Virus record (IMG/VR): IMGVR_UViG_3300025617_001208
Span: 1 to 64,000 of that record
From: a virus
DNA length: 64,000 nucleotides
Strand: one strand, 5' to 3'
In this document: one piece after another, positions 7,553-45,333 of the stretch
How the letters are laid out: the number at the start of each line of letters is the position of its first letter
How positions within the stretch are numbered: the stretch's first letter is position 1
Position numbers and translations under genes: made by a program
The notes under the pieces: model-generated
Told to the model about the DNA's origin: nothing
What the model saw: only the letters and a program-made list of their open reading frames with translations
Database searches by the model: none

Positions 7553-8203
7553 TTATTTTTCAATAATATCTATTTTTTGTTTAATTTTAGTAGGAAATGT
7601 AAAATCAGTAGCGTGATGTTCTCTACGATTTCTATTTTCATTTTTAAACCCAATACCCATTAACAATAGAATATTATTATCAGCACCTACTATTTGCTTG
7701 ACGTTTTTGGCATCAAAGCAACTACAGCATCCTGTATTAAGCCCTAGCATACTTGCTGTTAAGTTTGCATAACCAGCAGCAATACCTACTGCTACATGTG
7801 TATCTCTAACAAGATTTTCAACAGAAGTTGATGTCATAGTACCAGTTATTGTTTTTTCGTACCATTCTTCGTTTCTCACTTCCGTGTTTGGTGTTTCAAA
7901 CGGATTAGTTGCTTCAAATGCTAAAACTAAGTTTGCTAAAATTTGACTGTTAGTAGTACTTTCATTTGTTTCAAAATTATAAGTAAACCCGTCGGTGTTT
8001 GAATGTATTTGCTCGATTATATTACGATCTTGTATAAAATGCACTTTGTAAAATGCCATATTTTGCTTACTAGGACAGTTAGCTACAGAATGCTTTAGCA
8101 AGTCTAAATCGCTTTTTGGAATACTTTTTGTAAGATCCCAGTTTCTTTGACAGTGTTGGCTACGTATCACTGCTTTTTTTACATCATTGTATGTAGTTTG
8201 CAT
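7553..8203 (-). CDS. nitroreductase-family flavoprotein
   Basis: QRNWD...IP, CPSKQN, GIAAGYANLTASMLGLNTG, LLMGIG. Start moved to ATG 8203 (AGGGAG SD). Confidence 0.8.
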   Translation of the reverse strand: MQTTYNDVKKAVIRSQHCQRNWDLTKSIPKSDLDLLKHSVANCPSKQNMAFYKVHFIQDRNIIEQIHSNTDGFTYNFETNESTTNSQILANLVLAFEATNPFETPNTEVRNEEWYEKTITGTMTSTSVENLVRDTHVAVGIAAGYANLTASMLGLNTGCCSCFDAKNVKQIVGADNNILLLMGIGFKNENRNRREHHATDFTFPTKIKQKIDIIEK

Positions 8204-8221
8204 AGTATTCTCCCTATGCAA

Positions 8222-8794
8222 TTATTTATCTAATAATGTTGCTACTAGATGTATCCTATTTTCTTTGCTAGAATTTATTGCGGTATGATATAGTTTTGTA
8301 TTAGTCCAATACCATTTATTCTGTTCTAGATATTTTGTTTCTTCATCGATTATCATCAAACATCCTTGTTGTGTTTTCATTGGAAAATGTATCCGAGTTG
8401 TATCGTCTTTATGCCAACTTAAACAAGTTTTAGGTTTACTTATCATAATTCTAACACGCCCTATATTAGTATATTTTTGTTGAATAGCATTATAAACTAT
8501 TTCAAAGTTAGTTCCTTTAAACTGTGTACATAGATACTTAAAATCTTCTTCTTTAAAAAATTTTTCTCTAAGAGGAATGATCATTTTTCCTTGCTTATGA
8601 TCATAATAGCTTTCATCCCAATCATAGTGCAAGCTACCTCTTCCAAAATTATAGTTATCATATTTGCCTTCAACTGTGTTTAAGCATATTTGATCTGTGT
8701 CTTCTTTGTATTCTAGAATACCAGCATCTATCATTTTTAAAAAATCTTCATACAAGTTATATACTGGTAAATCAATTTCTTCAAAGTTATTCAT
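8222..8794 (-). CDS. aspartyl/asparaginyl beta-hydroxylase-like Fe(II)/2OG oxygenase
   Basis: GRVRIM, WHKD (HxD), RIHFP, HTAIN, RIHLV. Confidence 0.8.
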   Translation of the reverse strand: MNNFEEIDLPVYNLYEDFLKMIDAGILEYKEDTDQICLNTVEGKYDNYNFGRGSLHYDWDESYYDHKQGKMIIPLREKFFKEEDFKYLCTQFKGTNFEIVYNAIQQKYTNIGRVRIMISKPKTCLSWHKDDTTRIHFPMKTQQGCLMIIDEETKYLEQNKWYWTNTKLYHTAINSSKENRIHLVATLLDK

Positions 8795-9920
8795 CTATTT
8801 GTCCTAACAATAATTTTATATCTAATGTATTATTTTTTTCTGCATTTTTGTTATTGAGATAGGCTTCAAGTTCTGTTTTGTCAAACGCTTGTGTTCCAAC
8901 TGTATTTATTAAACTATCAAACCATGTATATACTTCGTTCTTATTTAAACACTTTTCATTATTGTGTTCAAATATATTTTTTGCTTGTTCTATATATGTT
9001 TTTAGGTATTTAGGTGCTTTAGAAATACTAAGTTCAATAGGCTGAAGTACAAAATTTGGATTTAAGTAATAAGGTTTATATCCTTTAGTAATATGTTTAA
9101 TATAATTAGGAAAATCTTTGATACTAAGAATATTAACTGTAGGATTATAACTTATACAAAATGTTCTACGATGATGATATAGTGTATTTAAATTATCATT
9201 CCATTGTTTCCAACTAGAACCGTGCCTAATATTTTCAAATACTTTTTTAGTAGCCTCTCCACTAAATCCCCAAACCCAAACCCAGTTAGTTTGTTCCATA
9301 TAATCTAATAATATTGAAATTACACTACTATGCATATTTCCATTACTAGTTGTGATTAACACAATATTTCTGTCATTTGCATTTGTCTGTATAAGTTTTT
9401 GTATAAATTGATGGTAACCTTTACTAAGAGTAGGTTCTCCTCCTAACATGTTTATACGTATTTCTCGTTTTTGAAAAATAATTTCTTTTATATATTCTGT
9501 AGCAATTTCTACATCATTTCTGTCGTGTTTTGTAATATATTGATGTAGTCCTTTTTGTTTTGCTATAGTACTGCTATCAATTTCGCTACAATATAAACAC
9601 CCTAAATTACATACATTATCAAATTTTAATTCTATAAATTCAACTAGCTCGTCAGGAGTTTTATTCAAGTTTATTGATTTATTGTAAATATCTCTATAAG
9701 AAGACCCTGAGTTACTATCATGATTCCAACAATAATTACAATGAAAATGTTTATTTCCTTGTAAACTTTGAGTTCTTCGTTGAATAATTTCAGGACTGTT
9801 GTTTATAAACTCTTTATCTAATTCTGTGTATTTTTCACTTAATGATTTGCAACAATGCTTTATTCGTTTTTCGCCAAAGTCTATGTTAATATCAGTCCAG
9901 CTTTTCGAACATAATGCCAT
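8787..9920 (-). CDS. radical SAM protein with N-terminal twitch domain
   Basis: CNLGCLYC, GGEP; N-term C...CC...CNYC. Confidence 0.9.
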   Translation of the reverse strand: MALCSKSWTDINIDFGEKRIKHCCKSLSEKYTELDKEFINNSPEIIQRRTQSLQGNKHFHCNYCWNHDSNSGSSYRDIYNKSINLNKTPDELVEFIELKFDNVCNLGCLYCSEIDSSTIAKQKGLHQYITKHDRNDVEIATEYIKEIIFQKREIRINMLGGEPTLSKGYHQFIQKLIQTNANDRNIVLITTSNGNMHSSVISILLDYMEQTNWVWVWGFSGEATKKVFENIRHGSSWKQWNDNLNTLYHHRRTFCISYNPTVNILSIKDFPNYIKHITKGYKPYYLNPNFVLQPIELSISKAPKYLKTYIEQAKNIFEHNNEKCLNKNEVYTWFDSLINTVGTQAFDKTELEAYLNNKNAEKNNTLDIKLLLGQIDE

Positions 9921-10710
9921 AATTTAAACTTATTCCTAACTTATAAGTAGCAGATTTTTTAGTTAGTTTTTCTGCCCAGTGGATTCTACAACTATCAAAA
10001 ATAATTAAATTTCCTGGCTTCCATTTATGTTCTGCTTCTATTGATAATTTGTCAAATGTGCTATACGGAACAAAAAATGGCTCGTCTATATGTTCTTTCC
10101 ACCAATTTTGCGATATTGTATTTGTTTCTTCTAAATATTTTACACCATCGTTTTTGTAATCATACGAAAAATAGACACCGCAACTCTTTTGCCGTTCTAT
10201 TTCTTTGTCAATACTATCAATTTTTTCACATCCATTACGCATACGTGTACTTGGACCGTAAAAATATTGATTAGCAGTATAAAGCATTGGATAATCGTTA
10301 GTATCTATTTCAACTGGTACAACAACACTACGAGTTCCTACTATGCCTTTTTTATCATTATCTGCTCTAAAATCTCTATTATCAATATGTACATCATGAG
10401 GAGGATAATTTATGCAAAAAGCAGTATCTCCTATTAACACTTCGTTTGGATCAAGTAAAGGTTCAATGTACTTTTTACTAAATTCTTGTATTATTTGTTG
10501 TGTGTGTACCATCCCATTACGATACCAAAACAAGGTTTTTGGAAACTGATCCGGAATATTTAAATACTCGTATACAAATTTTTTTAAATCTTGTAAAACA
10601 TCTTTGGGTATACAATTTTCAATTGAATAAGATTTGTTTTCGCTGCTAATTAGATTTTCTACTGTAGAATTTAACGCAAATGCATCAGGATGGCTCATTG
10701 GTATTTTCAT
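9892..10710 (-). CDS. putative Fe(II)/2OG oxygenase (paralog of 20931-21755)
   Basis: VHID and WKPGNLIIFDSCRIH. Start moved to ATG 10710. Confidence 0.65.
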   Translation of the reverse strand: MKIPMSHPDAFALNSTVENLISSENKSYSIENCIPKDVLQDLKKFVYEYLNIPDQFPKTLFWYRNGMVHTQQIIQEFSKKYIEPLLDPNEVLIGDTAFCINYPPHDVHIDNRDFRADNDKKGIVGTRSVVVPVEIDTNDYPMLYTANQYFYGPSTRMRNGCEKIDSIDKEIERQKSCGVYFSYDYKNDGVKYLEETNTISQNWWKEHIDEPFFVPYSTFDKLSIEAEHKWKPGNLIIFDSCRIHWAEKLTKKSATYKLGISLNYGIMFEKLD

Positions 10711-11821
10711 GTGTCTTCCTTTTAGGTATTTTACTATCTGCACTACTCACACAACTATCAGTCATACAAGGCATAGGCTTATCAAACAGTTTAAACCCTG
10801 TTTCAATGTTTCCTAGAGGAACATCGTGGCAACTGTAACTGCGCTTTACACTACCATCTGGTTCGCGTATAATGATACCCTGATAGCCGGCGTTGCAGTT
10901 CCAGCCTTTGAATTTGTTAAAGTTAAATGCATTAAAACGTTCTGCTTGATCCATATACCACTTCTTGCCGTCTTTGTCTTCAAACTCTACTTGCATGTGC
11001 CATGGAATACTAGTATCAAGTTTTCCGTCAACTCCAGTAGGTATTTCAAATGTTGGCTTAGGACGTCCTGACCACTTGCGTTTGCTTTCTGTATATGCAC
11101 GTTGTGGCATGCCGTTGTGCAGTCGTTTTAGGTTCTCGTCTGTATACCCATCTACAACTCGACTAGCTGTAGGGTCGCTTTGAGGCTTTAGCGTTACGTT
11201 GATTCCTTGCTCGTGGAAGAACAGGGCGTTTTCCCAATCTCTTTCAAACCAATCTGGTACCATGACCATATTAATGGTAACCTGTACATCGTGCTCCTGA
11301 CAGAAGATTAACTTGTCTGCAAAATCTTGCATCTTCTCAATTGTATTTAAGTGTTCTGTGTGCAAACTTGCTGTAATGCTGGCACGGTGAAATGGCTTAA
11401 CTGCTTCTACATACTTTTCAAACCAGGCCATATTGCGTGACATATTTGTTGTCATATGAACACTAGTATAGTTGGTGTTGTCTACGTCATCAGCCAGATG
11501 TTGTAGAATGTCCAAGTAGCCAGGATGGAAAGTAGGCTCACCACCACTAAGACTAAAATGATAACTATTAAATCCGTTTTCACGTGCTTGCCTCTTTATT
11601 TCATCCATGGTCCGTAAGCAGAGCTCGGTAGGACGGTGGTCTTTACGATCGCTGCGGGCATAAGGCCAACAGTAGGAGCATTTGTAATTGCAGAACCTTC
11701 CAAGGAGCCAACTGACAGTAAATATATCACGATACAACAAGGTACGCTGACCAACACTAACAATATCGTCAAAGGGTATTTTTGTAAAGTCATAGTTTGA
11801 CCATTTTAAATCTTTATTCAT
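10685..11821 (-). CDS. radical SAM protein with C-terminal twitch/SPASM-like domain
   Basis: CNYKCSYC, SGGEP, C-term WNCNAG...SC...LGNI...PC...SC. Confidence 0.9.
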   Translation of the reverse strand: MNKDLKWSNYDFTKIPFDDIVSVGQRTLLYRDIFTVSWLLGRFCNYKCSYCWPYARSDRKDHRPTELCLRTMDEIKRQARENGFNSYHFSLSGGEPTFHPGYLDILQHLADDVDNTNYTSVHMTTNMSRNMAWFEKYVEAVKPFHRASITASLHTEHLNTIEKMQDFADKLIFCQEHDVQVTINMVMVPDWFERDWENALFFHEQGINVTLKPQSDPTASRVVDGYTDENLKRLHNGMPQRAYTESKRKWSGRPKPTFEIPTGVDGKLDTSIPWHMQVEFEDKDGKKWYMDQAERFNAFNFNKFKGWNCNAGYQGIIIREPDGSVKRSYSCHDVPLGNIETGFKLFDKPMPCMTDSCVSSADSKIPKRKTHENTNEPS

Positions 11822-11827
11822 ATCTAT

Positions 11828-11855
11828 ATTATACTACCTTTAGCTATTTTGTCAA
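11828..11855 (-). promoter_or_regulatory. sigma70-like promoter, probably leaderless transcript
   Basis: TTGACA-16 nt-TATAAT-6 nt-ATG(11821). Confidence 0.75.
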
Positions 11856-13124
11856 TCAAATTCTATTGTGTCCAACTGTTGTTAACCAAGGAAATGTTTC
11901 TTGCCAATTTGTGCCTCTACGTTTGTCAAGTTCTGTAAGACGCCATTTAAGCATTTTAATTGCTTCATAATCTGCAGGTGTTTCGTTTATTTCTTTAAAA
12001 ATAGTATCTACATAATCTATATAAGCAGTATTTTTACCTTGATACATAGTTTGATTAAGTTCTTTTAATTGTGCAATTACGTCATCGTAAAACCCTTCGG
12101 GCATAATTTTAGGATCAAACCAATGCGGATCATGGCACCTATTATAGTTTACACTTACATATCTATGTTTATTCCATTCTATTACCTTTTTAACTAATTC
12201 AGGTGTATTTTTTAGACTAAGATTTGTTACAGTCCAATTCATAGTTGGAATAATTTCAGGACATTCGTATATTAAATAATTTATGTTTTCTTCCATTACA
12301 TCCCAGTTGTGAGGAAAACGTATGTATTCACTTTCTTTTCCAACTGTATCAACACTTATTACAAAAACAACTTCTTTAACTGTTTTACTAAGCTCTTTAA
12401 GTTTTTCGCAGCCTCTTTTAAATAACTTAGGCTTAACTTCCATGTTACTATATATTTCTATATCGCATTCAGGGTTAGGGTGGTCGATCATCCAATCAAC
12501 ACAATCCCAAGTTTCTTGTTGTATAAATGGTTCGCCACCTAGTAAATCAAATGCTTTTAAACTACTGTAATTATTTTCCATCCATTTGTAAAATTTTTTT
12601 AATCTGTCTTGATATGTGTTTTCTTTTATATCAACGTCTTTTATAAAACTATGATCAGGTTCGTACTTTTGCATTTCTTTAACCCAGGCACTACTGTATT
12701 GAGGTCCACAGTAAACACATTTTAAATTACATTTGTTATTAAAGTGCATACTTACTTGTGTAGGTTTTATACGTGTTGCTGTTGGATTGTTAAAAAGCTC
12801 TTTTGGAACATATCGTTTATTGTTTTCGTTGCTTAACCATTGCATACGGTCACTAGTACCGCCAATTGCTTCTTGGTCTCTGCAATGCTCGCAGCCCCAG
12901 CCATCGCTTGGCCAATTTCCTTTGAGCATTTTTTCTCTATGTTCTACCCACTTAGGTTCATTGTGAAAATCAAAATTCTCACCTATCGGAGACATGCCAT
13001 TTCTATGACAACTACTACTAGTATTATCCCACAAACTTAATGTAACCTGACTCCATTTAAGTAAACAAGCCTTATTGCCTTGAGCCGGAAACCAATCTGG
13101 ATTTTTCCATTCTTTTTTACTCAT
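11856..13124 (-). CDS. radical SAM protein with N-terminal twitch domain
   Basis: CNLKCVYC, GGEP; N-term ACLLKW...SCH...GCEHC. Confidence 0.9.
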   Translation of the reverse strand: MSKKEWKNPDWFPAQGNKACLLKWSQVTLSLWDNTSSSCHRNGMSPIGENFDFHNEPKWVEHREKMLKGNWPSDGWGCEHCRDQEAIGGTSDRMQWLSNENNKRYVPKELFNNPTATRIKPTQVSMHFNNKCNLKCVYCGPQYSSAWVKEMQKYEPDHSFIKDVDIKENTYQDRLKKFYKWMENNYSSLKAFDLLGGEPFIQQETWDCVDWMIDHPNPECDIEIYSNMEVKPKLFKRGCEKLKELSKTVKEVVFVISVDTVGKESEYIRFPHNWDVMEENINYLIYECPEIIPTMNWTVTNLSLKNTPELVKKVIEWNKHRYVSVNYNRCHDPHWFDPKIMPEGFYDDVIAQLKELNQTMYQGKNTAYIDYVDTIFKEINETPADYEAIKMLKWRLTELDKRRGTNWQETFPWLTTVGHNRI

Positions 13125-14287
13125 ATATACTCTCTTAACTTTAATAGTTTTTCATCTTTTTTCTGTGCAGCAATTTTAATAATCCAATTATCTAATTCTA
13201 GATTATTTTGCTGTTGTGTTCCTATACGTGCTTGTAATTGTTCAAGCCATTTATATGTGTGATTGTACTGTCCTTGATCTAAAAACAAGTCTTTATTTTT
13301 ACGTATTAATTTTAAACATTTTTTAACATGTTTTTTATAAGAGTTATCTAATCGACTTGGGTCAAGTTCGTTTGGCCAATTTACCCAGTTTCCAAAAATT
13401 GCCAGTTTGGTATTTGTTTTTCGTAGTTCAGTAATAGTCCAATCAAAATAATCATACATATGCCTAACTGTAAAAATATTAGGAGTAGGTGCAAGAGTAA
13501 CATTTACTAATCTTGGATGATTGATATAATCTATAAAATTATTTTGAAAACGTTTCCAATCTAATCCGTATCTCACCGATTCTGCTACAATTCCAGTTGC
13601 CTCGTTGCTTATTCCTAAACTTATTCCCCATTTCTCAGGCAAACTATCAAATAAATCAAGTAGTTTTTTTTGATTTTTAGCTGTTGCATTACCGTTAGTG
13701 AGTACACTAAAATTTATTCTACTATCGTAAATAGATTCTTTTTGTAATATAAGTTGCATAAACTTATAAAAGTTTTTGCTGTAACTTATTTCTCCTCCTA
13801 AGAAACTTAAAGGTATAAATTCTTGTTTTAATGCTACAGATTCAAACCAGTTAATAAATGTTTGCATGTGTTCTTCATTAGGAACATTCATTACATGCTT
13901 GTGGCCCAGCTCTTGTGCAATACGACTACTACTAGTTGCATCACAGTATACACATGCCATATCACAAATATTATCAAGTGTAATTTCTATGTTGTTGATA
14001 TTTGTGTTTATACTACTGTTATCAACCCATTTGTTTTTAAAATCTCTATATGCAGTTCCGGTTTCTTTGTAACTATTCCAACAAAACTTACAAGCAGGAT
14101 TTTCTACCCCGGACATTAAGTCTTTCCTAAGAGATTGTATGTGTGTGCTATTGTTAAAAAAGTCTATTGTAACATTCTCAGGAAATGGTTCACGCTCACT
14201 TTTACAACAATGACTTAAAGTCTTTGCACCAAAGTCTACGTTTATATCATACCATGCAGCACTGCACAATGTTTTATTTAATGCCAT
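13121..14287 (-). CDS. radical SAM protein with N-terminal twitch domain
   Basis: CDMACVYC, GGEI; N-term C...HCC...ACKFC; closest paralog is 8787-9920. Confidence 0.9.
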   Translation of the reverse strand: MALNKTLCSAAWYDINVDFGAKTLSHCCKSEREPFPENVTIDFFNNSTHIQSLRKDLMSGVENPACKFCWNSYKETGTAYRDFKNKWVDNSSINTNINNIEITLDNICDMACVYCDATSSSRIAQELGHKHVMNVPNEEHMQTFINWFESVALKQEFIPLSFLGGEISYSKNFYKFMQLILQKESIYDSRINFSVLTNGNATAKNQKKLLDLFDSLPEKWGISLGISNEATGIVAESVRYGLDWKRFQNNFIDYINHPRLVNVTLAPTPNIFTVRHMYDYFDWTITELRKTNTKLAIFGNWVNWPNELDPSRLDNSYKKHVKKCLKLIRKNKDLFLDQGQYNHTYKWLEQLQARIGTQQQNNLELDNWIIKIAAQKKDEKLLKLREYI

Positions 14288-15264
14288 ATTATGTATGACC
14301 CTATATTTTCTTGATTTGATTTGTGATAACTATTATCAGCAGGAATATCTTTTTGATCTTGTATCCTTGGATCAAAATAACTTGTTGCATCTTCGTCTTT
14401 ATAACCTAACCCTAATAGTACTTGTACTTTATGCCCTGGACGGCCTAACGATTCGCTTATGTTAGTAGGTTCTTGTATACATGCACAATATCCAGTACTT
14501 AAACCTCTAGCTTGTGCATTCCATATAATAAAACTGCTTGCAATACCTATTTCTATCATCGATTCCTGCACAGCATTATCATCTGGATTGTGCGAAATAC
14601 GAGGAGTAAATGCAAACAAATACGGTGCAAGAACCTGAGGATTTCCAAAATCTGTTTTTGCATCGTGTTTAGGTTCTCTCCAGCACCATTCAAATATATC
14701 ATGACGTAAATCTTTATTTTTCCAATCTAGTACATCTAAATAATAAGGTGCCCTGTTCTGTTTACTTGGAGCATACATATGCAAATCTAATAAAATGTCT
14801 TCTACTGTCTCTTGAGATACTTTTTTATTACTCCAGGTAAATGTTGTCTTACGTTCCTTTATTAAATCACTAAAGTTTCTAGTATAATTTGCTTCTTCAA
14901 GTTTTACAAAATTATCTTTTAGTAATTGCATTGCTTCTATCATAATTTCAACATCTGTTCTATGATGTTTTAGTAGCTTGTATAATTCGCCTTCGATATA
15001 GGCATAGGTAGCCAGTTCTACTTTGTGATCATATAATACTAACTTTTTATTTTTTACAAATTTATGAGAAATCTCTTTAATACAATTTGCATCTTCGTGC
15101 AAAATACATCTAGCAAGTCCCCACAAAATATATTTTAAATCACGTTTGCATCTATAATGATCTCTAGTTCGCTGCATTGGAAATTTTGTCTTTACAAAAT
15201 TCATTCCCCATTCAGAGATTTCATCTATTCGTTTGTGTAATATATGGTAACCAACTAAGCTCAT
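14278..15264 (-). CDS. nitroreductase-family protein with extra N-terminal helical (phycobiliprotein/globin-like) domain
   Basis: C-term ERKTTFTW, APSKQN, EIGIAS...A.ARGLSTG, LLGLGY; N-term CKRDLKYIL motif. Confidence 0.75.
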   Translation of the reverse strand: MSLVGYHILHKRIDEISEWGMNFVKTKFPMQRTRDHYRCKRDLKYILWGLARCILHEDANCIKEISHKFVKNKKLVLYDHKVELATYAYIEGELYKLLKHHRTDVEIMIEAMQLLKDNFVKLEEANYTRNFSDLIKERKTTFTWSNKKVSQETVEDILLDLHMYAPSKQNRAPYYLDVLDWKNKDLRHDIFEWCWREPKHDAKTDFGNPQVLAPYLFAFTPRISHNPDDNAVQESMIEIGIASSFIIWNAQARGLSTGYCACIQEPTNISESLGRPGHKVQVLLGLGYKDEDATSYFDPRIQDQKDIPADNSYHKSNQENIGSYIIWH

Positions 15265-15327: not shown

Positions 15328-16062
15328 ATGTATACAGTTACAGAATGGGGTGTAAGCAACGAACCACCTGAAATATTTGCAGATAGAAATAAGTATCCAG
15401 CAAAGCCAAAATACCCACAAGATTTAAAAAGCTCACGTGATATACACATGAGTGACCAATTAGATTATTTGCCTATTGTAGGATTTGAAGATGCCGAATG
15501 GGAGAAGATGTTACAAGAAGCAAAAAATTTAGAAAAACATTATGTTCCGCATAGACATCACGAAAGTCATAGTGGCTGGAGTAGTTTATGCATACATGGG
15601 TTAAGCAGTGTACATACCGAATCTCATCATACATACGGATATACAGATAGAAAGGACGCTCCTTACAAATGGACCGATGTTGCAGACTGGTGTCCTACAA
15701 TAAGAGATTTTTTTGAAAACCGGTTTGATTACAATCAATATGACAGAATACGTATTATGAAACTATCTCCAGGAGGATGGATTATACCACATAGAGATAG
15801 TGTAACACTTGACGAAAATCATATAGGTCCTACTAATATTGCATTAAACAACCCAGAAGACTGTCACTTTTATATGGATAACATTGGATATTTGCCATGG
15901 GAACAAGGACGCATTATTAAATTAAATTTGTATAATTTGCATTGTGTATACAACTGGAGCAACGAAGATAGATATCATATTATTGCTCACGGCAGACTAG
16001 GAGACGGCTGGAACAAACGTATTGAAGATAGTTATCATCACTGGAGAAAAATTTATGTATAA
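15328..16062 (+). CDS. aspartyl/asparaginyl beta-hydroxylase-like Fe(II)/2OG oxygenase
   Basis: GWSSLCIHG, RIRIMKLSPGGWIIPHRD, HCVYN, DRYHII. Confidence 0.8.
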   Translation: MYTVTEWGVSNEPPEIFADRNKYPAKPKYPQDLKSSRDIHMSDQLDYLPIVGFEDAEWEKMLQEAKNLEKHYVPHRHHESHSGWSSLCIHGLSSVHTESHHTYGYTDRKDAPYKWTDVADWCPTIRDFFENRFDYNQYDRIRIMKLSPGGWIIPHRDSVTLDENHIGPTNIALNNPEDCHFYMDNIGYLPWEQGRIIKLNLYNLHCVYNWSNEDRYHIIAHGRLGDGWNKRIEDSYHHWRKIYV

Positions 16063-17344
16063 CATACAACATGCCGTTGTTGTACCAAAAAATGTAAAAG
16101 AAAACATTAATCGAGATTTATATCAAAGTTGGATGTTGTATTATCAACGTGGACACTATGTAAAACAAAGCGTTGAACAGCATCCATTTGTGTGGGCAGA
16201 AACAGTTGACGATATATTATCAATTGTTTCTCCTAAAAAAACTGAATATTTAATTGTAACTTGGTTTGGGATATATAATCACGACTTTTGGAATGTTCAT
16301 ACACTGTGTATAAAAGACATACAAGATCAAAAAACAGAGTGGAACGTATTGCACAGCAATAACACACCAACAATACAAATTGTTAATTTAAAAAGATGGA
16401 GAGAACAAGGCCAGCCGGCATTTGCAGATTACATAAAAACAAATAGTAAAAAAATTAATCCTGCTATTTCTACAAGTTTACTAGATTCCGAAGCAACACA
16501 AAATCCACAAGCATGGAGCGACGAATTAAATCATTTTACCAAACTACCTATTATCAATACAAATCTTACTGAGCTACTTGTTAAACTTCTTACAACACGA
16601 AATCCAAGGCATGCTAACAACCACGACAAGGGTGTGTTTTTCTTATATAATACAGAAGCTATATGTACGGATAAACAACGTCTAAGGGCGGTACAGGGCG
16701 CTATAAACACGGTTATAGGCCCTTGTAGTATGTTTAAAGCATTTATATTAGGTAGTAAATATATAGACAATGTTGATAACTATTTACACTTTGATATATT
16801 TGATCGTAATTTACAATGGAAAAAACTTATTACTGAAAATTGGGACGGTACTAAAAAAGGATTAACTAAAACACTATCACTTTGTGCAGATGAAGGAGAT
16901 GGCGATTTTAGCTTTTGGAATAATAGCAATGAAAACATTATTGAAAAGCAGTGGAATGTACTATTAAACGAATTAGGAAGTAAGGAACAAATACTTAGAG
17001 CATGGAATATTTACAAAACAAAAAATCATGCATATGCATTAAGTAATATGTTGTTTGACGATAACGAAATTATAAACAAGTTAGAACAATTTAATATTAC
17101 AGGAATATATCATGCAATAGGAGATATACCCGGTTTTAGAAGTAATGCATTACAGTTTGGATTACAACAAATAAATCAATTAACTAAAAGTCATCTAACT
17201 AGAGTTGCTAAAATAAATAACAATCTTTATGCAGATATAAAAGTTCCTGCGTCAGATTTACAAAAGTTTAAAAAATACAACGAAATCATTGACGATTTAC
17301 AAAACGATTATAACGAATTTTCGTTCGAAGAGTATTCAGAATAA
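16055..17344 (+). CDS. hypothetical protein (paralog of 25049-26410; possible transferase)
   Basis: Start moved to ATG 16055 (GGAG). Shares F..YNT(E/D), FD/AD and WDG motifs with 25049-26410. Confidence 0.7.
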   Translation: MYNIQHAVVVPKNVKENINRDLYQSWMLYYQRGHYVKQSVEQHPFVWAETVDDILSIVSPKKTEYLIVTWFGIYNHDFWNVHTLCIKDIQDQKTEWNVLHSNNTPTIQIVNLKRWREQGQPAFADYIKTNSKKINPAISTSLLDSEATQNPQAWSDELNHFTKLPIINTNLTELLVKLLTTRNPRHANNHDKGVFFLYNTEAICTDKQRLRAVQGAINTVIGPCSMFKAFILGSKYIDNVDNYLHFDIFDRNLQWKKLITENWDGTKKGLTKTLSLCADEGDGDFSFWNNSNENIIEKQWNVLLNELGSKEQILRAWNIYKTKNHAYALSNMLFDDNEIINKLEQFNITGIYHAIGDIPGFRSNALQFGLQQINQLTKSHLTRVAKINNNLYADIKVPASDLQKFKKYNEIIDDLQNDYNEFSFEEYSE

Positions 17345-32040: not shown

Positions 32041-32076
32041 TCCTGTGTTCAACTATAATTGACAAATACAAAATTT

Positions 32077-37647: not shown

Positions 37648-38325
37648 AAACATTTTGTGAGCTTTTTCTCTAAAGGTGTATTTTTCTTCAAACAGATCTT
37701 CCCAGTTATCTGGTAAGTCGAAATTTACACCTAAGTAATAATCTTTATATTTTTTATAACTTTTGTCTAGTAAGCCAACGTAATTTTTATCGTTATAATT
37801 ACCATCCCACGGTGCGCCTAGTGCAAGTGTAAATTTAGTATCACCCGAGGTGTTGTGCATTTCGTGAGGCCATTTACCGCTCATCATAAACGGTTTGTCT
37901 ACAGTAGTAGGACGTACACTTGTGTCTTTACCAATAAAATCTAAGTCGTCGACATTACCTTGTAGAACATATCTAAACTTGTGCTGAGGAGTATCAAACA
38001 TTTCTGGACTACAATCAATATGCAAAGGATTTTTTGTACCGTTAGGAGTAGTAATAATCATTATCCTACTACGTTCTTTTGTAATTTGAAATAACACATC
38101 CTCGCACCATTGTTTTAACTTGGGCATTTGGAATGCCCACGGCATCCACTGGAATTCGTCTTTTTTAGTTGGATTATACATAATAGGAACATGATAACAG
38201 TTCCTATAGTCGTCTTGATATATTTTACTAACATCCAAACTATTTAAATAATCCATGTGATCCAATGGAGGATTTTCAATGTCTAGAGGCAAATATAATA
38301 AGTTGTCAAATTGATTTTTATCCAT
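37633..38325 (-). CDS. putative Fe(II)/2OG oxygenase / cupin
   Basis: SRIMIITT..G..NPLHIDC...WPHEMHN. Start moved to ATG 38325. Confidence 0.65.
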   Translation of the reverse strand: MDKNQFDNLLYLPLDIENPPLDHMDYLNSLDVSKIYQDDYRNCYHVPIMYNPTKKDEFQWMPWAFQMPKLKQWCEDVLFQITKERSRIMIITTPNGTKNPLHIDCSPEMFDTPQHKFRYVLQGNVDDLDFIGKDTSVRPTTVDKPFMMSGKWPHEMHNTSGDTKFTLALGAPWDGNYNDKNYVGLLDKSYKKYKDYYLGVNFDLPDNWEDLFEEKYTFREKAHKMFLKQR

Positions 38326-39691
38326 CTGTATCTTTACAAGTTTCAAAGAAGTTTGCCATTTCCGGAAATGCTTCTTTAAAATTTGTATTCCTTCTTTTGT
38401 CCTGTTCGTTAAAGAAACGCCAAAAATCAATACGTCCTTGCATTACTTTTGCAGGATCATATGTTGTACTATCCATATAATCAACTACTCTTCTAAAACG
38501 TTCGTACTCCATTGTTGTAAATGCATCTTTACGTTTGTCATCTAAATTATCTTTTATAAACTGTAAGTGGCTGTGCATATACTTCATATACTCTTGCGGT
38601 AAAATGTTAATATCATACTGCAACGGTTCTTTTAAGTAAGGAGTATCGAAACTCAATCGATTCCATCTATATGTTTCTACATTGTTGTATTTACGGCGCC
38701 ATTCAAGTATTTTTTCTAATAATGTTTGAAATGTTGTTACACTGAAAATATTAAATGTAATCATAATAGTTACAGGTGCATTAGTATTAGTCATGAAGTA
38801 ATCTAAGTTACGCTCAAAAGTTTCAATGTCTAATCCATTACGGATATACTCGGCTCTTTCGCCCCATGTATCAATACTAGTAAACAATTTAAATCTACGT
38901 ATTTTGTTTTGACTAAGCAGGCTGTTTACAGAATCAGTAAACTTTTCTAATTGTTTAGGTTTGCCGCCTAAATTGCTGTTTACATTTAATTCTAAGTTTG
39001 GCTTAGGATCATTTTCAAGCAAATCAAATAACTTGTATGTGCTTTTTTGTATAGTAGGTTCTCCGCCTGTAATACGTAAAATTGTTAGATCTTTACTAAG
39101 TTCTGGCCACCAACGCCAAAATGCATCTAAATATGGATTATTGTCTTCTTCGTAAATCTGAAACCAATCAATGTCGCAACGATGATTACGTACAGTTGTA
39201 TAAGGACCGTACTGTTTAATTTCGTTGTAATATCTACTACTAGCTTTTGGATGACAATATCCACAACGAAAGTTGCACTCGTTACCAAATGAAACTTCTA
39301 AGTATTCTGGATTAACATTAAACTCTGCGCCGCCTGTTTTAACTGCATCAAGTCTTTCTTCGTTGTAAATACTGCTACTACGGGTTTTACGATCGCTAAT
39401 ATAATCTTCGCCCATATTTTCAATATTCCAACAATACTGGCATCCCTTAGGTTGTTCTCCACGCATCATTGCAGCACGTTCTTGTTTCTTTTGTGCTGTA
39501 TTGTGTATAGCACTAGGATTAGTTAATAACGGTGCTGTGTCAATCTTGTGAGGAGCCGGATGATAACAACTGTGTGTTTCACCTGTTTGAAAATAGATGT
39601 TTGCGTGATACCATTTTGCAAAACAAAAAGTAGGAGATATTTCTTTGTCTGTATATTTTGTTATACGGACTGCTTCATCCCTTTCACTCAT
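38318..39691 (-). CDS. radical SAM protein with N-terminal twitch domain
   Basis: CNFRCGYC, TGGEP; N-term FCFAKW...SCYH...GCQYC. Confidence 0.9.
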   Translation of the reverse strand: MSERDEAVRITKYTDKEISPTFCFAKWYHANIYFQTGETHSCYHPAPHKIDTAPLLTNPSAIHNTAQKKQERAAMMRGEQPKGCQYCWNIENMGEDYISDRKTRSSSIYNEERLDAVKTGGAEFNVNPEYLEVSFGNECNFRCGYCHPKASSRYYNEIKQYGPYTTVRNHRCDIDWFQIYEEDNNPYLDAFWRWWPELSKDLTILRITGGEPTIQKSTYKLFDLLENDPKPNLELNVNSNLGGKPKQLEKFTDSVNSLLSQNKIRRFKLFTSIDTWGERAEYIRNGLDIETFERNLDYFMTNTNAPVTIMITFNIFSVTTFQTLLEKILEWRRKYNNVETYRWNRLSFDTPYLKEPLQYDINILPQEYMKYMHSHLQFIKDNLDDKRKDAFTTMEYERFRRVVDYMDSTTYDPAKVMQGRIDFWRFFNEQDKRRNTNFKEAFPEMANFFETCKDTDG

Positions 39692-40608
39692 TTAAGTTCC
39701 TTGTCAATAAACTTAGGATTACGCACAGGATTTTGATACACTGTTTTAAAAAATTTACTTTGATCTGCATTTAAACATTCAACAGAAATAGGCGCTTGTA
39801 ATTCATGCATTAATGTATCTCCAATTTCCTCGCTTTCGGTATCCATTTCAGATTCTGACATGTCGTTGCTGTTCCAGTAATTATTAAGCCACTCAAAGTC
39901 TCGAACGTTGATAAAGTCCCAATCGGTTAGCATAGTTTTATACAACCCTTCTCTAGCACCGTAAATAGCCCAACGACCATTTTCTGCATCAGCGCCTACC
40001 ATTAGCCAGATCCAAAGTCTATGCAAGTTTTTCCAATGATTACGTTTAAAATCTTCAATGTTTGGCCTAATACCTTGATCTAGTGCCATTTTAACACCTT
40101 CACGAAATCCAGCACGCCACGCTTGTTGCGGTGTTGCATTATTGTAGATATCACTAAATGTTCCATTCATTTGAATGTATTGTAAATCCCAACAAAAGTC
40201 TACTTGCGCATGTAGGTTGTCTGGATCAGCATTTTCATGTGTACGCATGTTTAACACTTTTTCTTTAGGCCAGCACTTGATACCGCCATTGCCATATGCT
40301 AGACCGTTGATCTGATTTAGTGCAGTCCAACTAATAACTTTATCAGTTAAATCATACTCGCTTAAATCTGCTTCTTGGCTTAAGAATGTTTCTCGAATTC
40401 TATTATCACCATCGATAGTAATAAAGCGATCGGTCTCACTGGCATTAGCAGCAGCTTTGTGTGCAGCATCGCTGCCCTTAACACCATGCACACGTTTAGC
40501 CCAAGGAACTTTAGTAAGCAAATCTGCATAATTTTGTTCTGCATTAGGTTCGTCATAACTTAAATAAATTATGTCATGATCAACTACTCTAAAAATATTA
40601 TCAGTCAT
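39688..40608 (-). CDS. glycosyltransferase-like protein (GT-A, DxD)
   Basis: YLSYDEPNA...RVHGVKGS.AAH...ITIDGD...YGNGG.K.W...AWRAGFREG. Confidence 0.7.
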   Translation of the reverse strand: MTDNIFRVVDHDIIYLSYDEPNAEQNYADLLTKVPWAKRVHGVKGSDAAHKAAANASETDRFITIDGDNRIRETFLSQEADLSEYDLTDKVISWTALNQINGLAYGNGGIKCWPKEKVLNMRTHENADPDNLHAQVDFCWDLQYIQMNGTFSDIYNNATPQQAWRAGFREGVKMALDQGIRPNIEDFKRNHWKNLHRLWIWLMVGADAENGRWAIYGAREGLYKTMLTDWDFINVRDFEWLNNYWNSNDMSESEMDTESEEIGDTLMHELQAPISVECLNADQSKFFKTVYQNPVRNPKFIDKELK

Positions 40609-41178: not shown

Positions 41179-42021
41179 TTATATTCCTAATTTATTTTCA
41201 TATTTTTTGATTATATCAGAACTTAAAAAGTCCTTTTCAGTATAATGAAATATACCGCTTTGTTTATAGTTACCTACAAATAATTCTAGATCATCACTTA
41301 GATAAACGCTTAAACGAGATTGCCAACTTTGATCTTTATACTTATTCCAATGTTGGACTTTTGGTTTCATATGTGTAAACGTAGGAAAATTATGTTTTGT
41401 AGTTATATTGTGTTCACAATCCATAATTTTAGCTGCAATTGCCGCAGTTAAATCCATACTACATGTTTTTTGAAAGGTTTTACCACCTGCATGATGTTTA
41501 TAGAAAAGTTGCCAATTATTTGTTATCATTTCCATCCATGCATAAAATTCTTTAGCTAACGGACGTTCTTTAAAATAATGAAATCCGCTATACAAATTTG
41601 GTAGGTTATATGTAGTAAACGCTCTTCGATAATAATCGTTTGTTACTAACTCTCCCCTATATGTATAAACATTGTTAGTGTAAAACAAATCATAATTTTT
41701 TAATAAATCAAACCATTTGGTTAAGTCTTGCAAAACTAACATGTCTGTATCAAGTACTACAGTTTCGTTAAACGGAGTTGCGTGATATAATTTCCAACGA
41801 TTACTGATTTTCCAATCTTCGTCTTCGGCATGATCGCCCCATGGAATTTCTATAATATATTCAAATAGATGTTTATACTTTTCTGGTACTGTATCGTTAG
41901 TTATAAGTGCTATTTTACTATTAGAATTTGTAGCATGAATACTCATTGCACAAACACATGCTTGTAAAACATAATCATCTGTGTTGTTATTTTGGGCAAG
42001 TAACGTAAAGTTTTTATTCAT
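41179..42021 (-). CDS. glycosyltransferase (GT-A; GT8/mannosyltransferase-like)
   Basis: IALITND, TPFNETVVLDTDML, YSGFHYF. Confidence 0.75.
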   Translation of the reverse strand: MNKNFTLLAQNNNTDDYVLQACVCAMSIHATNSNSKIALITNDTVPEKYKHLFEYIIEIPWGDHAEDEDWKISNRWKLYHATPFNETVVLDTDMLVLQDLTKWFDLLKNYDLFYTNNVYTYRGELVTNDYYRRAFTTYNLPNLYSGFHYFKERPLAKEFYAWMEMITNNWQLFYKHHAGGKTFQKTCSMDLTAAIAAKIMDCEHNITTKHNFPTFTHMKPKVQHWNKYKDQSWQSRLSVYLSDDLELFVGNYKQSGIFHYTEKDFLSSDIIKKYENKLGI

Positions 42022-42838
42022 CTATCATTCTTTCCAAACTAAATTTATTCATAACATGTACATTTTGATTTTTAGTTTTAACACCTGTATATTCACCTAA
42101 GTGCTGCTCTTTTTCTAAAAGAAACAAAAGTTCGTCATTGTTTATTTTTTCTAAAATATCCCTATCAGTAATAAAATATTTTTTACCAGGCAAATTTGAA
42201 ATTTGAGAATCTCCGGTAAACCCATTTAAAATATGTGCAGCAATACTAAATGCAAAATCGTTTCTATACAAAGGATTTACAATTTGATAAAGACTTGTAT
42301 AGTGCGAGTAGTTTTCTTTTACATGTTTTATTAAATCAAAAAATATTTTATTTTTATTACACTTTTTAAAGTATACAACTGTAGCCCAATAAAAGTTAAT
42401 ACCAGTATCATTAATTTTATCAAATTCTATAAGATTTCGCCAATGACACAAATCAACTGCATCACTATACATCATTAGATCTTGATTGCTATCAAAACAA
42501 CTTTTTAAATGATCGTTACAAATTACATAATCGGTATCCATAACAATTGTTTCTTCAAACGGTGATAAATCATATGCATTGCATCTATCCAAGTTGTTAA
42601 AATTTGCTAATTTTGTAGCCATATTACCATCGCGAAACTTTCTGGAATTTGCATTATTACTAGGTTCCAATTTAATAACATGATCAAAAAAATCAAGTCT
42701 GTTGTCATTGATCTTGTCAGTTGCTATGGCAACAGGAACATTTAAATGTTTTTTTACCCGTTTAGCACAAAATATAGCTTGTTTGATATAATCTAATGCT
42801 TTGTTGTCTTTAGCAAAAAGTAATACGCCTTTGCTCAT
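42014..42838 (-). CDS. glycosyltransferase (GT-A; GT8/mannosyltransferase-like)
   Basis: KGVLLFA, VAIATD, SPFEETIVMDTDY, RNDFAFSIA. Confidence 0.75.
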   Translation of the reverse strand: MSKGVLLFAKDNKALDYIKQAIFCAKRVKKHLNVPVAIATDKINDNRLDFFDHVIKLEPSNNANSRKFRDGNMATKLANFNNLDRCNAYDLSPFEETIVMDTDYVICNDHLKSCFDSNQDLMMYSDAVDLCHWRNLIEFDKINDTGINFYWATVVYFKKCNKNKIFFDLIKHVKENYSHYTSLYQIVNPLYRNDFAFSIAAHILNGFTGDSQISNLPGKKYFITDRDILEKINNDELLFLLEKEQHLGEYTGVKTKNQNVHVMNKFSLERMIDE

Positions 42839-43210: not shown

Positions 43211-43239
43211 ATTATACACGCAGTTAATAAAAAAGTCAA
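43211..43239 (-). promoter_or_regulatory. sigma70-like promoter for the GT/rSAM operon
   Basis: TTGACT-17 nt-TATAAT. Confidence 0.75.
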
Positions 43240-43244
43240 ATAAT

Positions 43245-44297
43245 TTATGCTACACTAGGTTGATTTTCACTTGCACCCGGTCTCATTAGATTACCACCTA
43301 ATGTAAAGTCAGTATCTGTAGTACCATCATTTAGTGTAATAGTACTATCAGGGTAATACTGAGTACCCGAAATAGTTACATTAGCAGTTACAGGTTCATC
43401 TATTGGAGTACTTTGAGGACCGTCAGCAGGATTGCCTGTGCCTGTATCGTTATCAAGCAGTCTTACTTGTAAAGTTACACGACTAAATCCGTTAATAACT
43501 GCTAATCGTACTTGAATTTCGTTATCATTATAAATGCTTCCTGCACCAATTTTTGTGTACTTAGTGGTCATAGCTATACCTGTAGTAAGAGTAGGAATGG
43601 CTGTAACCGAGCCTGTTCCGCTACTATTTAAACTTTCCACTACCCATTCCCAACCAGTACCTGCAGTATCAGGACGAGCATATAGTCTTACTGTACCCAT
43701 ATTTGATGCCATTGTTTGCCAGTTTAAGTTTTTTTCATAACTAGCCTGTCCCGGACTACCAATGGCATCAATATCAACATTAATACGTAGTTCGCCGCCA
43801 GCTGTAAAATATTCTTCAAATGACTGATCAGAGGGAAATGTGTAAACAACACTACCGGATATAACATTCCATTGAGCAGTAACTTCATCTAGTGTATTCA
43901 CAACAGTACTAAAATCTCCACCAAATTCTGTTGTACGTCTGTCAAATCCTGCACAAGTATTTGCTAAATCATATAAACCTTGTACATTAGCAGCATCTCC
44001 CCAGTCTGCCCATTCAATTACTTCGCCAACTTGTAAATCGGAATATGTAGTGCCACTTGCTAATGTTTTAACTGCACCTGTTTGATGGTAGTGTATTAAC
44101 TGACCAATACTAAACAGTTTTTCAACATCTGCTGATAACACTGTATCACTAGTATTTGGGTCGCTTCCTCCAACAACAGCACTAGGAATTGCATCATTAA
44201 CTGTTCCAAACCCATATTTGCCCGGCCCAAAATTATTTTCCAATATACTTCTAATATTGTTAAAGTCAGTTGCTGATATTGCGCTGCCTACAGCCAT
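43245..44297 (-). CDS. virion structural protein (paralog of 45298-46194)
   Basis: G/S/T/D-rich; shared YF.AGG.L...K...W..M...GTV...G..IY..N...D....DE.V; GATAAATA upstream at 44339-32. Confidence 0.7.
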   Translation of the reverse strand: MAVGSAISATDFNNIRSILENNFGPGKYGFGTVNDAIPSAVVGGSDPNTSDTVLSADVEKLFSIGQLIHYHQTGAVKTLASGTTYSDLQVGEVIEWADWGDAANVQGLYDLANTCAGFDRRTTEFGGDFSTVVNTLDEVTAQWNVISGSVVYTFPSDQSFEEYFTAGGELRINVDIDAIGSPGQASYEKNLNWQTMASNMGTVRLYARPDTAGTGWEWVVESLNSSGTGSVTAIPTLTTGIAMTTKYTKIGAGSIYNDNEIQVRLAVINGFSRVTLQVRLLDNDTGTGNPADGPQSTPIDEPVTANVTISGTQYYPDSTITLNDGTTDTDFTLGGNLMRPGASENQPSVA

Positions 44298-44367
44298 GCG
44301 AGATCTCCATGTTTATTATAATACTATACTTTATTTATCAGTGTTTTGTCAACCGATTAAATACTAC

Positions 44368-45333
44368 ATGGAACGTTTTAATTATGCAGAACAACGAAAT
44401 TATGTTTACATAGATTGGGATATGAGTAGTAGGTGCAATTATGCATGTGCATATTGCGAACCTGCTGCACACGACGGAAAGTTTGATTTTCCTACTATAG
44501 AAAATGCAAAACTATTAGTAGATAAAATTTCAAAAACATATACTGATAAGTTTGCAGTTTTTAATTTATTTGGAGGAGAGCCTACTATATGGAGAGAAAT
44601 TCCTGCATTTTTTAAATATGTTAAAAAATCAAATCCAAACAACAAAGTACAGTTATTAACAAATGGTAACAAAACAAAACGCTGGTGGCAAAAAAATCAA
44701 AACAATATAGATAGCGTTGTTGTCAGTGTACATGTAGCACAAGTAGATATTGTAGATCTTGTTGAAAAATTTAATGCGTGTGCAGGAAGTTTTGACATAC
44801 ACTTTCAAATTTGTATTGATATAAATCACTTTGAAACTGCTATGCAACAATACGATTACTGTTTAAAAAATTTAGACAAACATATTAGATTAGATTACAA
44901 GCCTTTACGAATTAGCTTGGATAAACCAGAATCTATGCCTTACACAAATTTTCAAATTAATACAATGAAAAAATTAAAAAAACTGCCTGGTATTAAAAAA
45001 GACCATTACGGAAGTAGTATGGTTGATGAAAATAATAACCTAGTGGATCTGCAAAAATTATTATTAGAGAAAAATAATAAATTTAAAAATTGGGCATGTT
45101 GGATAGGAATAGACACATTAAATATTACACGTGAAGGAAATGTTACAATAGGTAGTCAGTGTTTTCCTAATTTTGTATTAGGCAATATTCACACGTTAGA
45201 TTTTGAAATTCCATACAAGCCTGTAAAATGTCAATACGAATACTGTAGCTGTTTAACTGATCTTACAACTAAAAAAATAAAAAATTATTCTGGAGATTTA
45301 TTGGAAGACTTGAATATTTTGGTAAGCCGGTGA
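44368..45333 (+). CDS. radical SAM protein with C-terminal twitch domain (paralog of 10685-11821)
   Basis: W.MSSRCNYACAYC, FGGEP, TNG; WACWIG...C...LGNI...C...CSC. Start moved to ATG 44368. Confidence 0.9.
   Translation: MERFNYAEQRNYVYIDWDMSSRCNYACAYCEPAAHDGKFDFPTIENAKLLVDKISKTYTDKFAVFNLFGGEPTIWREIPAFFKYVKKSNPNNKVQLLTNGNKTKRWWQKNQNNIDSVVVSVHVAQVDIVDLVEKFNACAGSFDIHFQICIDINHFETAMQQYDYCLKNLDKHIRLDYKPLRISLDKPESMPYTNFQINTMKKLKKLPGIKKDHYGSSMVDENNNLVDLQKLLLEKNNKFKNWACWIGIDTLNITREGNVTIGSQCFPNFVLGNIHTLDFEIPYKPVKCQYEYCSCLTDLTTKKIKNYSGDLLEDLNILVSR

Follow-up and report, generated by a model that had tools for sequence, protein, structure and literature searches.

Why does a phage carry fifteen radical S-adenosylmethionine (rSAM) enzymes among its tail genes? 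The question is raised by IMG/VR virus record IMGVR_UViG_3300025617_001208 (76,884 bp), of which bases 1–64,000, hereafter the window, were analysed; an island at positions 7553–45333 contains 40 open reading frames (ORFs, named here by their left coordinates), and 15 of the 40 encode rSAM proteins. An earlier note on this DNA, made from its letters alone, had proposed a dedicated pathway that chemically decorates virion proteins or their glycans. The analyses reported here lead us to describe the island, tentatively, as a cytoplasmic pathway for editing and transferring a sugar with a virion protein as its acceptor, a reading that as a whole we hold to be possible, if somewhat short of probable.

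The window derives from a marine jumbo phage of the T4 type, with a genome of about 360 kb if, as CheckV estimates, the record is 21% complete. Its AAA ATPase (2041–3123) shares 50% identity with the counterpart in Pseudomonas jumbo phage PA5oct, and a Gp23-family T4-type capsid gene is found in a close relative (G002; PF07068, E = 4.7e-84), the gene itself lying off the fragment to which the window belongs. A pelagimyophage identity was considered and is not supported, the ATPase and the giant virion protein described below being nearest to the PA5oct, RaK2 and Atu_ph07 groups.

Profile searches with PF04055, PF13186 and the N-terminal-twitch model NF033640 (N_Twi_rSAM, twitch domain-containing radical SAM protein; cut-off 170 bits), which the earlier note had suggested, bear out the rSAM identity of all fifteen ORFs that it listed. 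Each contains CxxxCxxC exactly once and each matches PF04055, 12 of the 15 above the gathering cut-off of 29.5 bits; the three below it are 11856 and 38318, both of which pass NF033640 (257 and 319 bits, respectively), and 27705, a truncated paralog of 241 aa (25.0 bits). Eight of the proteins, all encoded on the minus strand, form a family, here family A, of full-length NF033640 matches. Six members pass the cut-off at 257–424 bits, namely 11856–13124, 17308–18549 (308.8 bits), 18546–19910 (296 bits), 22306–23619 (367.8 bits), 23612–25021 (423.8 bits) and 38318–39691, while the divergent members 13121–14287 (167.9 bits; PF04055 31.2 bits) and 8787–9920 (160.6 bits; PF04055 35.9 bits) fall slightly under it. 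These paralogs are anciently diverged and share just 18–35% identity. Their alignment nevertheless retains four invariant cysteines (C12, C30, C93 and C96) N-terminal to C149xxxC153xxC156, together with an invariant G224-G225-E226, and PF13186 matches at residues 4–97 in three members (residues 4–66 in 17308). The seven-cysteine SPASM motif was not found in the N-terminal domains of the eight paralogs, which conserve only these four cysteines and are therefore best described as twitch-like.

A second family, family B, comprises four minus-strand genes: 19891–20931 (PF04055 47.8 bits), 26407–27474 (33.4 bits), 28427–29524 (34.7 bits) and a split gene at 27416–28430, in which the 241-aa core (27705–28430) overlaps a 98-aa Cys-rich twitch piece (27416–27712). 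Here the Cys-rich, twitch-like part is C-terminal, and G-x-x-[GD]-D-P (SGVYGDP in 19891, followed in the alignment by PCC...C...C) stands where the canonical GGEP SAM-binding motif would be expected. The domain order is thus the reverse of that in family A, and the members share the motif F[SA]xDG..TNHxYR. When the two products of the split gene are joined, they align end to end with the fused paralogs, PCC...C...C included. The remaining rSAM proteins are two singletons related to one another by blastp, 10685–11821 (minus strand; PF04055 59 bits), which lacks a twitch domain and has weak viperin/MoaA-like similarity, and 44218–45333 (plus strand; 41.7 bits), and a putative B12-binding (class B) enzyme, probably a methyltransferase, at 32059–33681 (plus strand; 44.5 bits). 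The last matches PF02310 at 27.5 bits, below the cut-off of 32.1, and its best NCBIfam match is the PhpK family (E = 6e-27; 94 bits against a cut-off of 600).

A scan of IMG/VR recovered at least 232 stretches encoding relatives of 23612, the most conserved gene of the island; the counts of loci given below refer to the best 80 of these, in which the protein is 82–92% identical to 23612. The 10685 protein is 79–91% identical in phage relatives, 28427 is present at ≥60% identity in 73 of the 80 loci, and homologs of 30083, a methyltransferase-like protein, occur in 75. Longer relatives belong to one lineage, with ATPases 79–84% identical, similar CheckV size estimates and 9–13 rSAM matches each, and they keep the same gene order of ATPase, rSAM island and three fibre paralogs. 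The linkage to tail genes, which the earlier note had recommended checking, is kept in every relative examined, and a dedicated phage-borne tailoring pathway stands as proposed. A recurring backbone consists of a GT8 pair, the GT-A glycosyltransferase 39688, rSAM 38318, the GT-A glycosyltransferase 30957, a 30083-like gene, rSAMs 28427 and 23612, a short-chain dehydrogenase/reductase (SDR; 21752) and rSAM 10685; slots outside it vary between contigs and behave as swappable rSAM cassettes. Among the 1,342 ORFs with 100 aa or more in the 80 loci, 616 encode rSAM proteins. Several cassettes of the relatives are absent from the window, including a QueC-like PP-loop protein (48 of 80 loci), an AMP-binding enzyme (13), a fatty-acid-desaturase-like protein (9), a carbamoyltransferase (5) and a cytidylyltransferase (3); one long relative (G003) encodes a PF02348 cytidylyltransferase within its island. 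The QueC-like protein, with an SGGADS motif and a C-terminal Cys/Zn motif, is exemplified by L025:8168-8935 and was seen in 73 more ORFs. In nine related loci (among them L043:1219-4464, L033:3139-6210, L041:1234-4467 and L058:31-3303), single ORFs of ~1,000–1,100 aa combine homologs of 39688 and 30083 and may represent naturally fused island enzymes.

Almost all of the nearest Atlas clusters are viral. No close relative of 23612 was found in cultured phages, where the only matches were rSAM proteins 21–23% identical in Vibrio phages K566 and K567 and Ralstonia phage RsoM2USA. The cultured 255-kb Vibrio phage K566 (L112, OZ196521.1:161548-168284) carries four distant family-A genes in one group, at 23–26% identity; the core trio of rSAMs 10685, 28427 and 23612 was not found in it.

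A bacterial counterpart was recovered by scanning species-representative genomes with a profile of 17308, which gave one match, a metagenome-assembled genome labelled Bdellovibrionales (G006). The matching contig (G006:C91; 178.7 kb, 44% GC) carries dnaG, rpoD, biotin genes, HPPD and an M16 peptidase, and is chromosomal on the evidence of these genes. Between dnaG-rpoD and the biotin genes lie ~33 kb homologous to the phage island at 41–67% identity, including a nine-gene run collinear with the window. Further bacterial sampling covered one phylum, Bdellovibrionota (301 genomes for NF033640 and 401 for the 10685-type gene). The NF033640 cut-off is passed in 79 of the 301 genomes. The 10685-type gene is single-copy in 24 of the 401, at 59–70% identity, and adjoins an ortholog of 23612 in at least a dozen of those 24; bacterial orthologs of 23612 and 28427 are 57–62% and 44–47% identical, respectively. 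In five further genomes (G168, on a 2.9-Mb contig, G277, G280, G259 and G255) the core trio occurs alongside additional rSAM paralogs and genes of the GT-A, SDR and 30083 types.

The surroundings of the bacterial copies are informative as to chemistry. In three genomes, G006, G259 and G280, the cluster includes a cytidylyltransferase (PF02348) and a short NeuB-like synthase (PF03102), accompanied by a GH114 hydrolase, a carbamoyltransferase of the NodU/CmcH type and proteins with 3–13 predicted membrane spans. By gene content, then, the bacterial copies appear to lie in chromosomal loci resembling those for surface glycans, and the discovery of this bacterial core locus points to tailoring of a sugar, probably an acidic one, rather than to peptide or DNA chemistry. 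Literature searches on Bdellovibrio with rSAM/SPASM and on rSAM with nonulosonic acid returned nothing relevant, and a search for NF033640 returned no paper and no characterised member, the family being a catalogue entry. As a separate observation, about a quarter of the sampled Bdellovibrionota genomes show a massive expansion of N_Twi_rSAM genes, for which no publication was found; one genome may contain as many as ~36 first-look candidates, distributed over a number of clusters (for example G168:C1:1414955-1428065 and G277:C15:638321-665196).

Because homologous clusters exist in bacterial chromosomes, the island might be an assembly artefact or a recent bacterial insert, an explanation to which we assign a virtually negligible probability. 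Identity to the bacterial genes is only 41–70%, and GC content is 28–40% over the island and its flanks, with no break at the island borders, against 39–44% in the bacterial loci. The same phage genes flank the island in relatives, and a near-identical stretch was recovered from six marine metagenome runs belonging to six studies. A 2.2-kb contig spanning 6051–8250, and hence the fibre gene 6055–7536 and the first island gene, was found with zero differences in three runs independent of the likely source, and read depth is even over the fibre/island junction in the bridging contigs. A chimeric bacterial insert, which the earlier note had named as an outcome fatal to its proposal, is accordingly rejected.

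The backbone supplies the enzymes for sugar transfer. All four glycosyltransferases named in the earlier note are GT-A by profile or fold. Two of them, 41179–42021 and 42014–42838 (both minus strand), are GT8-like, glycogenin-type proteins: a profile of 18 sequences matches glycogenin-1/2 (E = 2.6e-6) over the N-terminal ~100 residues only, with an invariant D91xD93. The core enzyme 30957–31988 (minus strand) is predicted to adopt a GT-A, GT2-like fold (AF2 pLDDT 84) with an invariant D174-G-D176, and 39688–40608 (minus strand) is its paralog (blastp E = 3e-28) and shares its alignment and model. Foldseek places this model with probability 1.0 and 68 PDB matches at E ≤ 1e-3, those listed being almost all GT-A enzymes such as K4CP, RmlT, SunS and GtrB. 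The core also includes 21752–22309 (minus strand), a short SDR-like oxidoreductase of 185 aa with a TGxxxG-type N-terminus and Y101xxxK105, for which a PDB SDR profile (E = 4e-4) upholds the earlier assignment and whose homologs in bacterial clusters are 36–40% identical. The methyltransferase proposed at 30083–30976 (minus strand) is retained at motif level only: GWYG and D motifs are present and no significant PDB match was obtained. Homologs of this protein are likewise encoded in the bacterial clusters.

The island is embedded in genes for host recognition. At its left border lies a fibre-like protein (6055–7536, plus strand), and inside it a second fibre-like structural protein with G-(D/N)-V-T repeats (33691–35019, plus strand); the fibre identity given to both in the earlier note agrees with a C-terminal motif of ~35 residues that they share (ER..L....G.(I/V)IFN(S)(T/S)T.K.Q.YNGS.W.DL), a similar motif being present at the N-terminus of 6055. 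Homologs of 33691 occur in 32 of the 80 phage loci and are absent from the bacterial clusters examined. The tail block reported beside the island is also confirmed. It begins at the right border with three paralogous tail-fibre proteins (46216–51593, minus strand; PHROG tail-fibre matches, shared N-termini), which adjoin the island in four long relatives (G001–G004) too, and continues with a giant virion structural protein of ~4,529 aa (52228–64000, minus strand), whose ORF runs on to record base 65817 (L081:3-1817) and shows patches of tblastn similarity to virion structural proteins of PA5oct and RaK2. The tandem fibre paralogs (46216–47727, 47761–49593 and 49593–51593) are 32–37% identical over their first ~200 residues and divergent in the remainder, which looks like a common attachment domain carrying different distal parts.

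Several of these genes are preceded by a short motif, NATAAATA, which stands 14–37 nt upstream of the fibre genes 6055, 33691 and 46216 and the island genes 32059 and 43245. The window contains 17 sites, 7 of which lie 14–37 nt upstream of gene starts in sense orientation (1068, 6011, 32033 and 33666 on the plus strand; 44339, 47759 and 52232 on the minus strand), a placement expected by chance about 0.2 times. From its position the motif looks like a T4-type late promoter. TATAAATA itself is strongly depleted over the whole window (3 observed against 14.9 expected).

We propose, on this basis, that the island would be a soluble cytoplasmic pathway of sugar tailoring and sugar transfer located in the fibre, or host-recognition, region of the phage. 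The fixed core (rSAMs 10685, 28427 and 23612, the GT-A transferases, the short SDR and the methyltransferase-like protein) would make a radically edited sugar, probably acidic and perhaps a CMP-activated, ulosonic-type sugar, while the changeable set (rSAM paralogs, Fe(II)/2-oxoglutarate (Fe/2OG) oxygenases, nitroreductases and the B12-rSAM enzyme) would diversify it by C–H chemistry such as oxidation, epimerisation, methylation and hydroxylation. The four GT-A enzymes would then transfer this product to its acceptor, for which a virion protein made in the cytoplasm, such as the fibres, is the likeliest candidate. A sugar substrate is suggested by the core that phages and bacteria have in common, by the SDR and four glycosyltransferases, by the carbohydrate genes that accompany the bacterial copies, and also by the cytidylyltransferase, carbamoyltransferase and carboxylate-activating PP-loop cassettes of phage relatives. 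Pfam finds no nonribosomal peptide synthetase or polyketide synthase, exporter, peptidase or kinase among the island ORFs, in agreement with the earlier note, and no polytopic membrane protein is predicted in the island, only soluble enzymes; since the phage copy lacks membrane and export genes and appears to be co-transcribed with late fibre genes, a virion protein is favoured as acceptor.

Several observations weigh against this proposal. NeuB-like and cytidylyltransferase genes lie inside the rSAM cluster in only 3 of the ~20 bacterial genomes checked; NeuB (PF03102) is absent from the window's record and from the four long relatives, and PF02348 is absent from the window's record and present in one of the five records (G003), so the window is not itself a member of a nonulosonic or ulosonic acid pathway and is linked to one by context only. 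PDB profile matches of family A are mixed (SkfB, GDGT synthase, viperin, BlsE, MoaA and BtrN) and do not separate sugar from peptide rSAM enzymes, and neither family A nor family B includes a member with a known substrate. The glycosyltransferase calls are remote homologies, with no Pfam glycosyltransferase family in any of the four and low TM-scores for 30957 (0.24–0.32), and the late-promoter reading depends on a short motif. Domains resembling Asp/Asn hydroxylases and SPASM proteins are equally at home in protein or peptide modification, and a modified virion is a prediction from gene content.

The most serious rival, which we consider unlikely, holds that the same sugar chemistry is directed at the host envelope (lipopolysaccharide (LPS) core, O-chain or capsule) by way of host carriers and export, remodelling the cell surface against superinfection or the re-adsorption of progeny. 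GT8 and LpxO-type PF05118 proteins are classic LPS enzymes, the bacterial homologs are linked to the envelope by membrane proteins and a secreted GH114, and the small rSAM group of Vibrio phage K566 lies ~6 kb from a PagP-like gene; the same role has been proposed for glycosyltransferases of pelagimyophage host-recognition clusters (PMC7029224). Yet neither a priming transferase nor a flippase, polymerase or ligase is encoded in the phage island, which in 32 of 80 relatives has a fibre gene within it. The island also sits in the late structural module, co-oriented with fibres and with late-promoter-like motifs ahead of parts of it, whereas exclusion functions are usually early. Direct modification of virion protein or peptide side chains, as in pathways for ribosomally synthesised and post-translationally modified peptides (RiPPs), is less likely still, and we regard it as improbable. 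It could take the form of cross-links, epimerisation, C-methylation or β-hydroxylation of the Gly/Asp/Asn/Val/Thr-repeat fibre 33691, whose gene starts 9 nt after the end of the B12-rSAM gene, and SPASM/twitch rSAMs, B12-rSAM C-methyltransferases, nitroreductase-type dehydrogenases and Asp/Asn hydroxylases are all known from RiPP pathways. Weak NCBIfam matches to peptide maturases and an M16 PqqF-like peptidase 1.3 kb from the island in G006 point the same way. The Pfam scan of the island ORFs nevertheless found no precursor peptide, RiPP recognition element (RRE)/PqqD, leader peptidase or exporter, and none of the small island ORFs inspected is precursor-like. The bacterial clusters with the same core lack a homolog of the repeat-fibre gene, the bacterial context is one of carbohydrate genes (NeuB-like, cytidylyltransferase, carbamoyltransferase, GH114), and the conserved backbone includes four glycosyltransferases and an SDR. 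RiPP clusters typically carry one to three rSAM enzymes, far fewer than the 15 distinct ones present here. Of the two targets in the earlier note, virion proteins or their glycans, the glycan half is thus favoured by the presence of the core in bacterial sugar loci, and direct side-chain modification is not.

Two further readings place the product elsewhere. A diffusible small molecule used during infection, such as an aminoglycoside-like or nucleoside-like metabolite or a cofactor, would be in keeping with the neighbours of the island enzymes by fold or family (EvdO2, KanJ, BtrN, BlsE and PhpK-type proteins), which come from antibiotic pathways, and with the AMP-binding and carbamoyltransferase genes of relatives. 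It would leave the tight, conserved linkage to fibre genes unexplained; no scaffold-forming synthase, resistance gene or exporter was found, and the bacterial versions are accompanied by GH114 and polytopic membrane proteins, typical of polymers, so that we think this explanation very unlikely. Hypermodification of phage DNA, for example base glycosylation or further decoration, has a natural appeal in that T4-type phages glycosylate their DNA and rSAM enzymes are present in some thymidine hypermodification and deazaguanine pathways, and QueC-like genes occur in 48 of the 80 relatives. We rate it highly improbable: a hydroxymethylase, nucleotide kinase, DpdA/TGT, FolE and QueD are all missing from the island, its transferases are GT-A, unlike the GT-B type of T4, and the homologous bacterial clusters resemble chromosomal surface-glycan loci.

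The proposal of a sugar-editing pathway with a virion acceptor can be carried further, to a combinatorial scheme of radical glycan editing that would be hitherto undescribed. The invariant rSAM trio would build a new modified acidic sugar, whose C–H positions would be rewritten by exchangeable cassettes of rSAM, oxygenase and PP-loop enzymes. The resulting strain-specific fibre glycan on the virion surface would generate diversity at the level of glycans, to the benefit of host range or of evading defences, and predatory Bdellovibrionota would share the system through gene transfer. That this scheme holds in full lies, in our estimate, on the unlikely side.

The earlier note knew of no characterised phage example on this scale. 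No characterised example is known to us either, but publications describe a marine T4-like viral genome containing 12 rSAM genes (Nishimura et al. 2017, PMC5332604) and rSAM cassettes in the host-recognition clusters of pelagimyophages (Zaragoza-Solas et al. 2020, PMC7029224), and the island itself recurs on hundreds of IMG/VR contigs (at least 232); the claim of unprecedented scale stands only in part. Like the pelagimyophage and cyanomyophage clusters (PMC7029224) and the PMC5332604 genome, the island is a large hypervariable region within a marine T4-type structural module, and both published systems share with it tail fibres, glycosyltransferases (GT8 prominent), an Asp/Asn hydroxylase and rSAM cassettes that vary between close relatives. 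It differs from them in belonging to a ~360-kb jumbo lineage with an ATPase and giant protein nearest PA5oct/RaK2 and in the dominance of rSAM proteins, and neither study analysed the rSAM families or their bacterial counterparts. The presence of the core in Bdellovibrionota chromosomes is new, and the scale, the cassette-like variability and the distribution between phages and predatory bacteria are unusual.

Among known enzymes, the catalogue family NF033640 has the same layout of N-terminal cysteines and CxxxCxxC, here expanded to eight paralogs on a phage. BtrN, BlsE and the GenK/Fom3/PhpK types likewise combine an rSAM core with one twitch or B12 domain in a glycosyltransferase-containing pathway, although similarity to BtrN (E = 0.06) and BlsE (E = 0.005) is marginal and the twitch domain of family A is N-terminal. 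RiPP clusters (polytheonamide, sactipeptides) resemble the island in having SPASM-like rSAM, B12-rSAM, Fe/2OG hydroxylase and nitroreductase-type flavoenzymes; unlike them, the island has a four-glycosyltransferase backbone and bacterial homologs in carbohydrate loci, and lacks a precursor, RRE, peptidase and exporter. Glycosylation of mycobacteriophage capsids and tails and the fibril glycans of Mimivirus involve virus-encoded soluble glycosyltransferases near structural genes. The island, too, places soluble glycosyltransferases and putative sugar-modifying enzymes near structural genes, virion glycosylation being here a reading of the gene content. To our knowledge those systems use conventional nucleotide-sugar enzymes and no rSAM arrays; the island would thus represent phage-encoded glycan machinery combined with radical sugar tailoring.

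If the proposal is true, a substrate class and a biological role would be assigned to two large rSAM families, one with an N-terminal twitch and one with an altered SAM motif; ocean viromes are rich in both families, which are expanded to dozens of copies in Bdellovibrionota, and neither has a studied member. Decoration of virions would give the first phage glycan built by radical chemistry and would add a new level of variability in host range to a widespread lineage of marine jumbo phages, whereas remodelling of the host surface would amount to an unusually elaborate superinfection-exclusion system. For new enzymology the fixed core trio is a defined starting point open to testing; the bacterial homologs may provide a culturable system for genetics, and K566 is a possible laboratory model for family A.

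The changeable set is completed by oxygenases and flavoenzymes. Five of the six Fe/2OG oxygenases proposed in the earlier note were verified, and a sixth was not found. Two are Asp/Asn β-hydroxylase-like cupins of PF05118, 8222–8794 (minus strand; LpxO-type, E = 4e-11) and 15328–16062 (plus strand; E = 1.5e-9), the latter 57% identical to a gene of the bacterial island, and 35679–36746 (plus strand) belongs to the TauD/TfdA family (PF02668, E = 1.3e-12). The paralogs 9892–10743 and 20931–21767 (both minus strand; related by blastp) are predicted to adopt the double-stranded β-helix fold of Fe/2OG dioxygenases: the model of 20931 (AF2 pLDDT 86, pTM 0.87) matches proline hydroxylases (P4H), EvdO2 and KanJ with Foldseek probability 1.0, H115xD117...H254 is invariant in the family, and hhalign of this family against the PF05118 ORFs gave no significant match. 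Both nitroreductases are supported by PF00881, in 7553–8221 (minus strand; 35.8 bits) and in its paralog 14278–15264 (minus strand), where the match covers residues 135–288 and follows an additional N-terminal domain of ~125 aa that has no family match. A GNAT-like assignment of 37039 was not supported (best PDB profile E = 0.61).

Pfam (to E = 5) and PHROGs gave no match for 9892, 16022, 20931, 25049, 30957, 39688 and 42014, and weak or function-less matches only for 21752, 30083 and 41179; PDB profile searches gave none for 30083, 30957, 20931 and 25049. Of these, 25049–26467 (minus strand) encodes a 472-aa protein with no Pfam, PHROG or PDB match. A scan of the window for tRNA and Rfam elements likewise gave no match. 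The 440-aa protein without a family match encoded at 16022–17344 (plus strand) has a 28% identical homolog at the same place in the bacterial island. In four marine runs, summed contig depth is 3- to 15-fold higher over window positions 10673–12006, which include the 10685 rSAM gene, and over the ATPase than over their neighbours, probably because related strains share these conserved genes.

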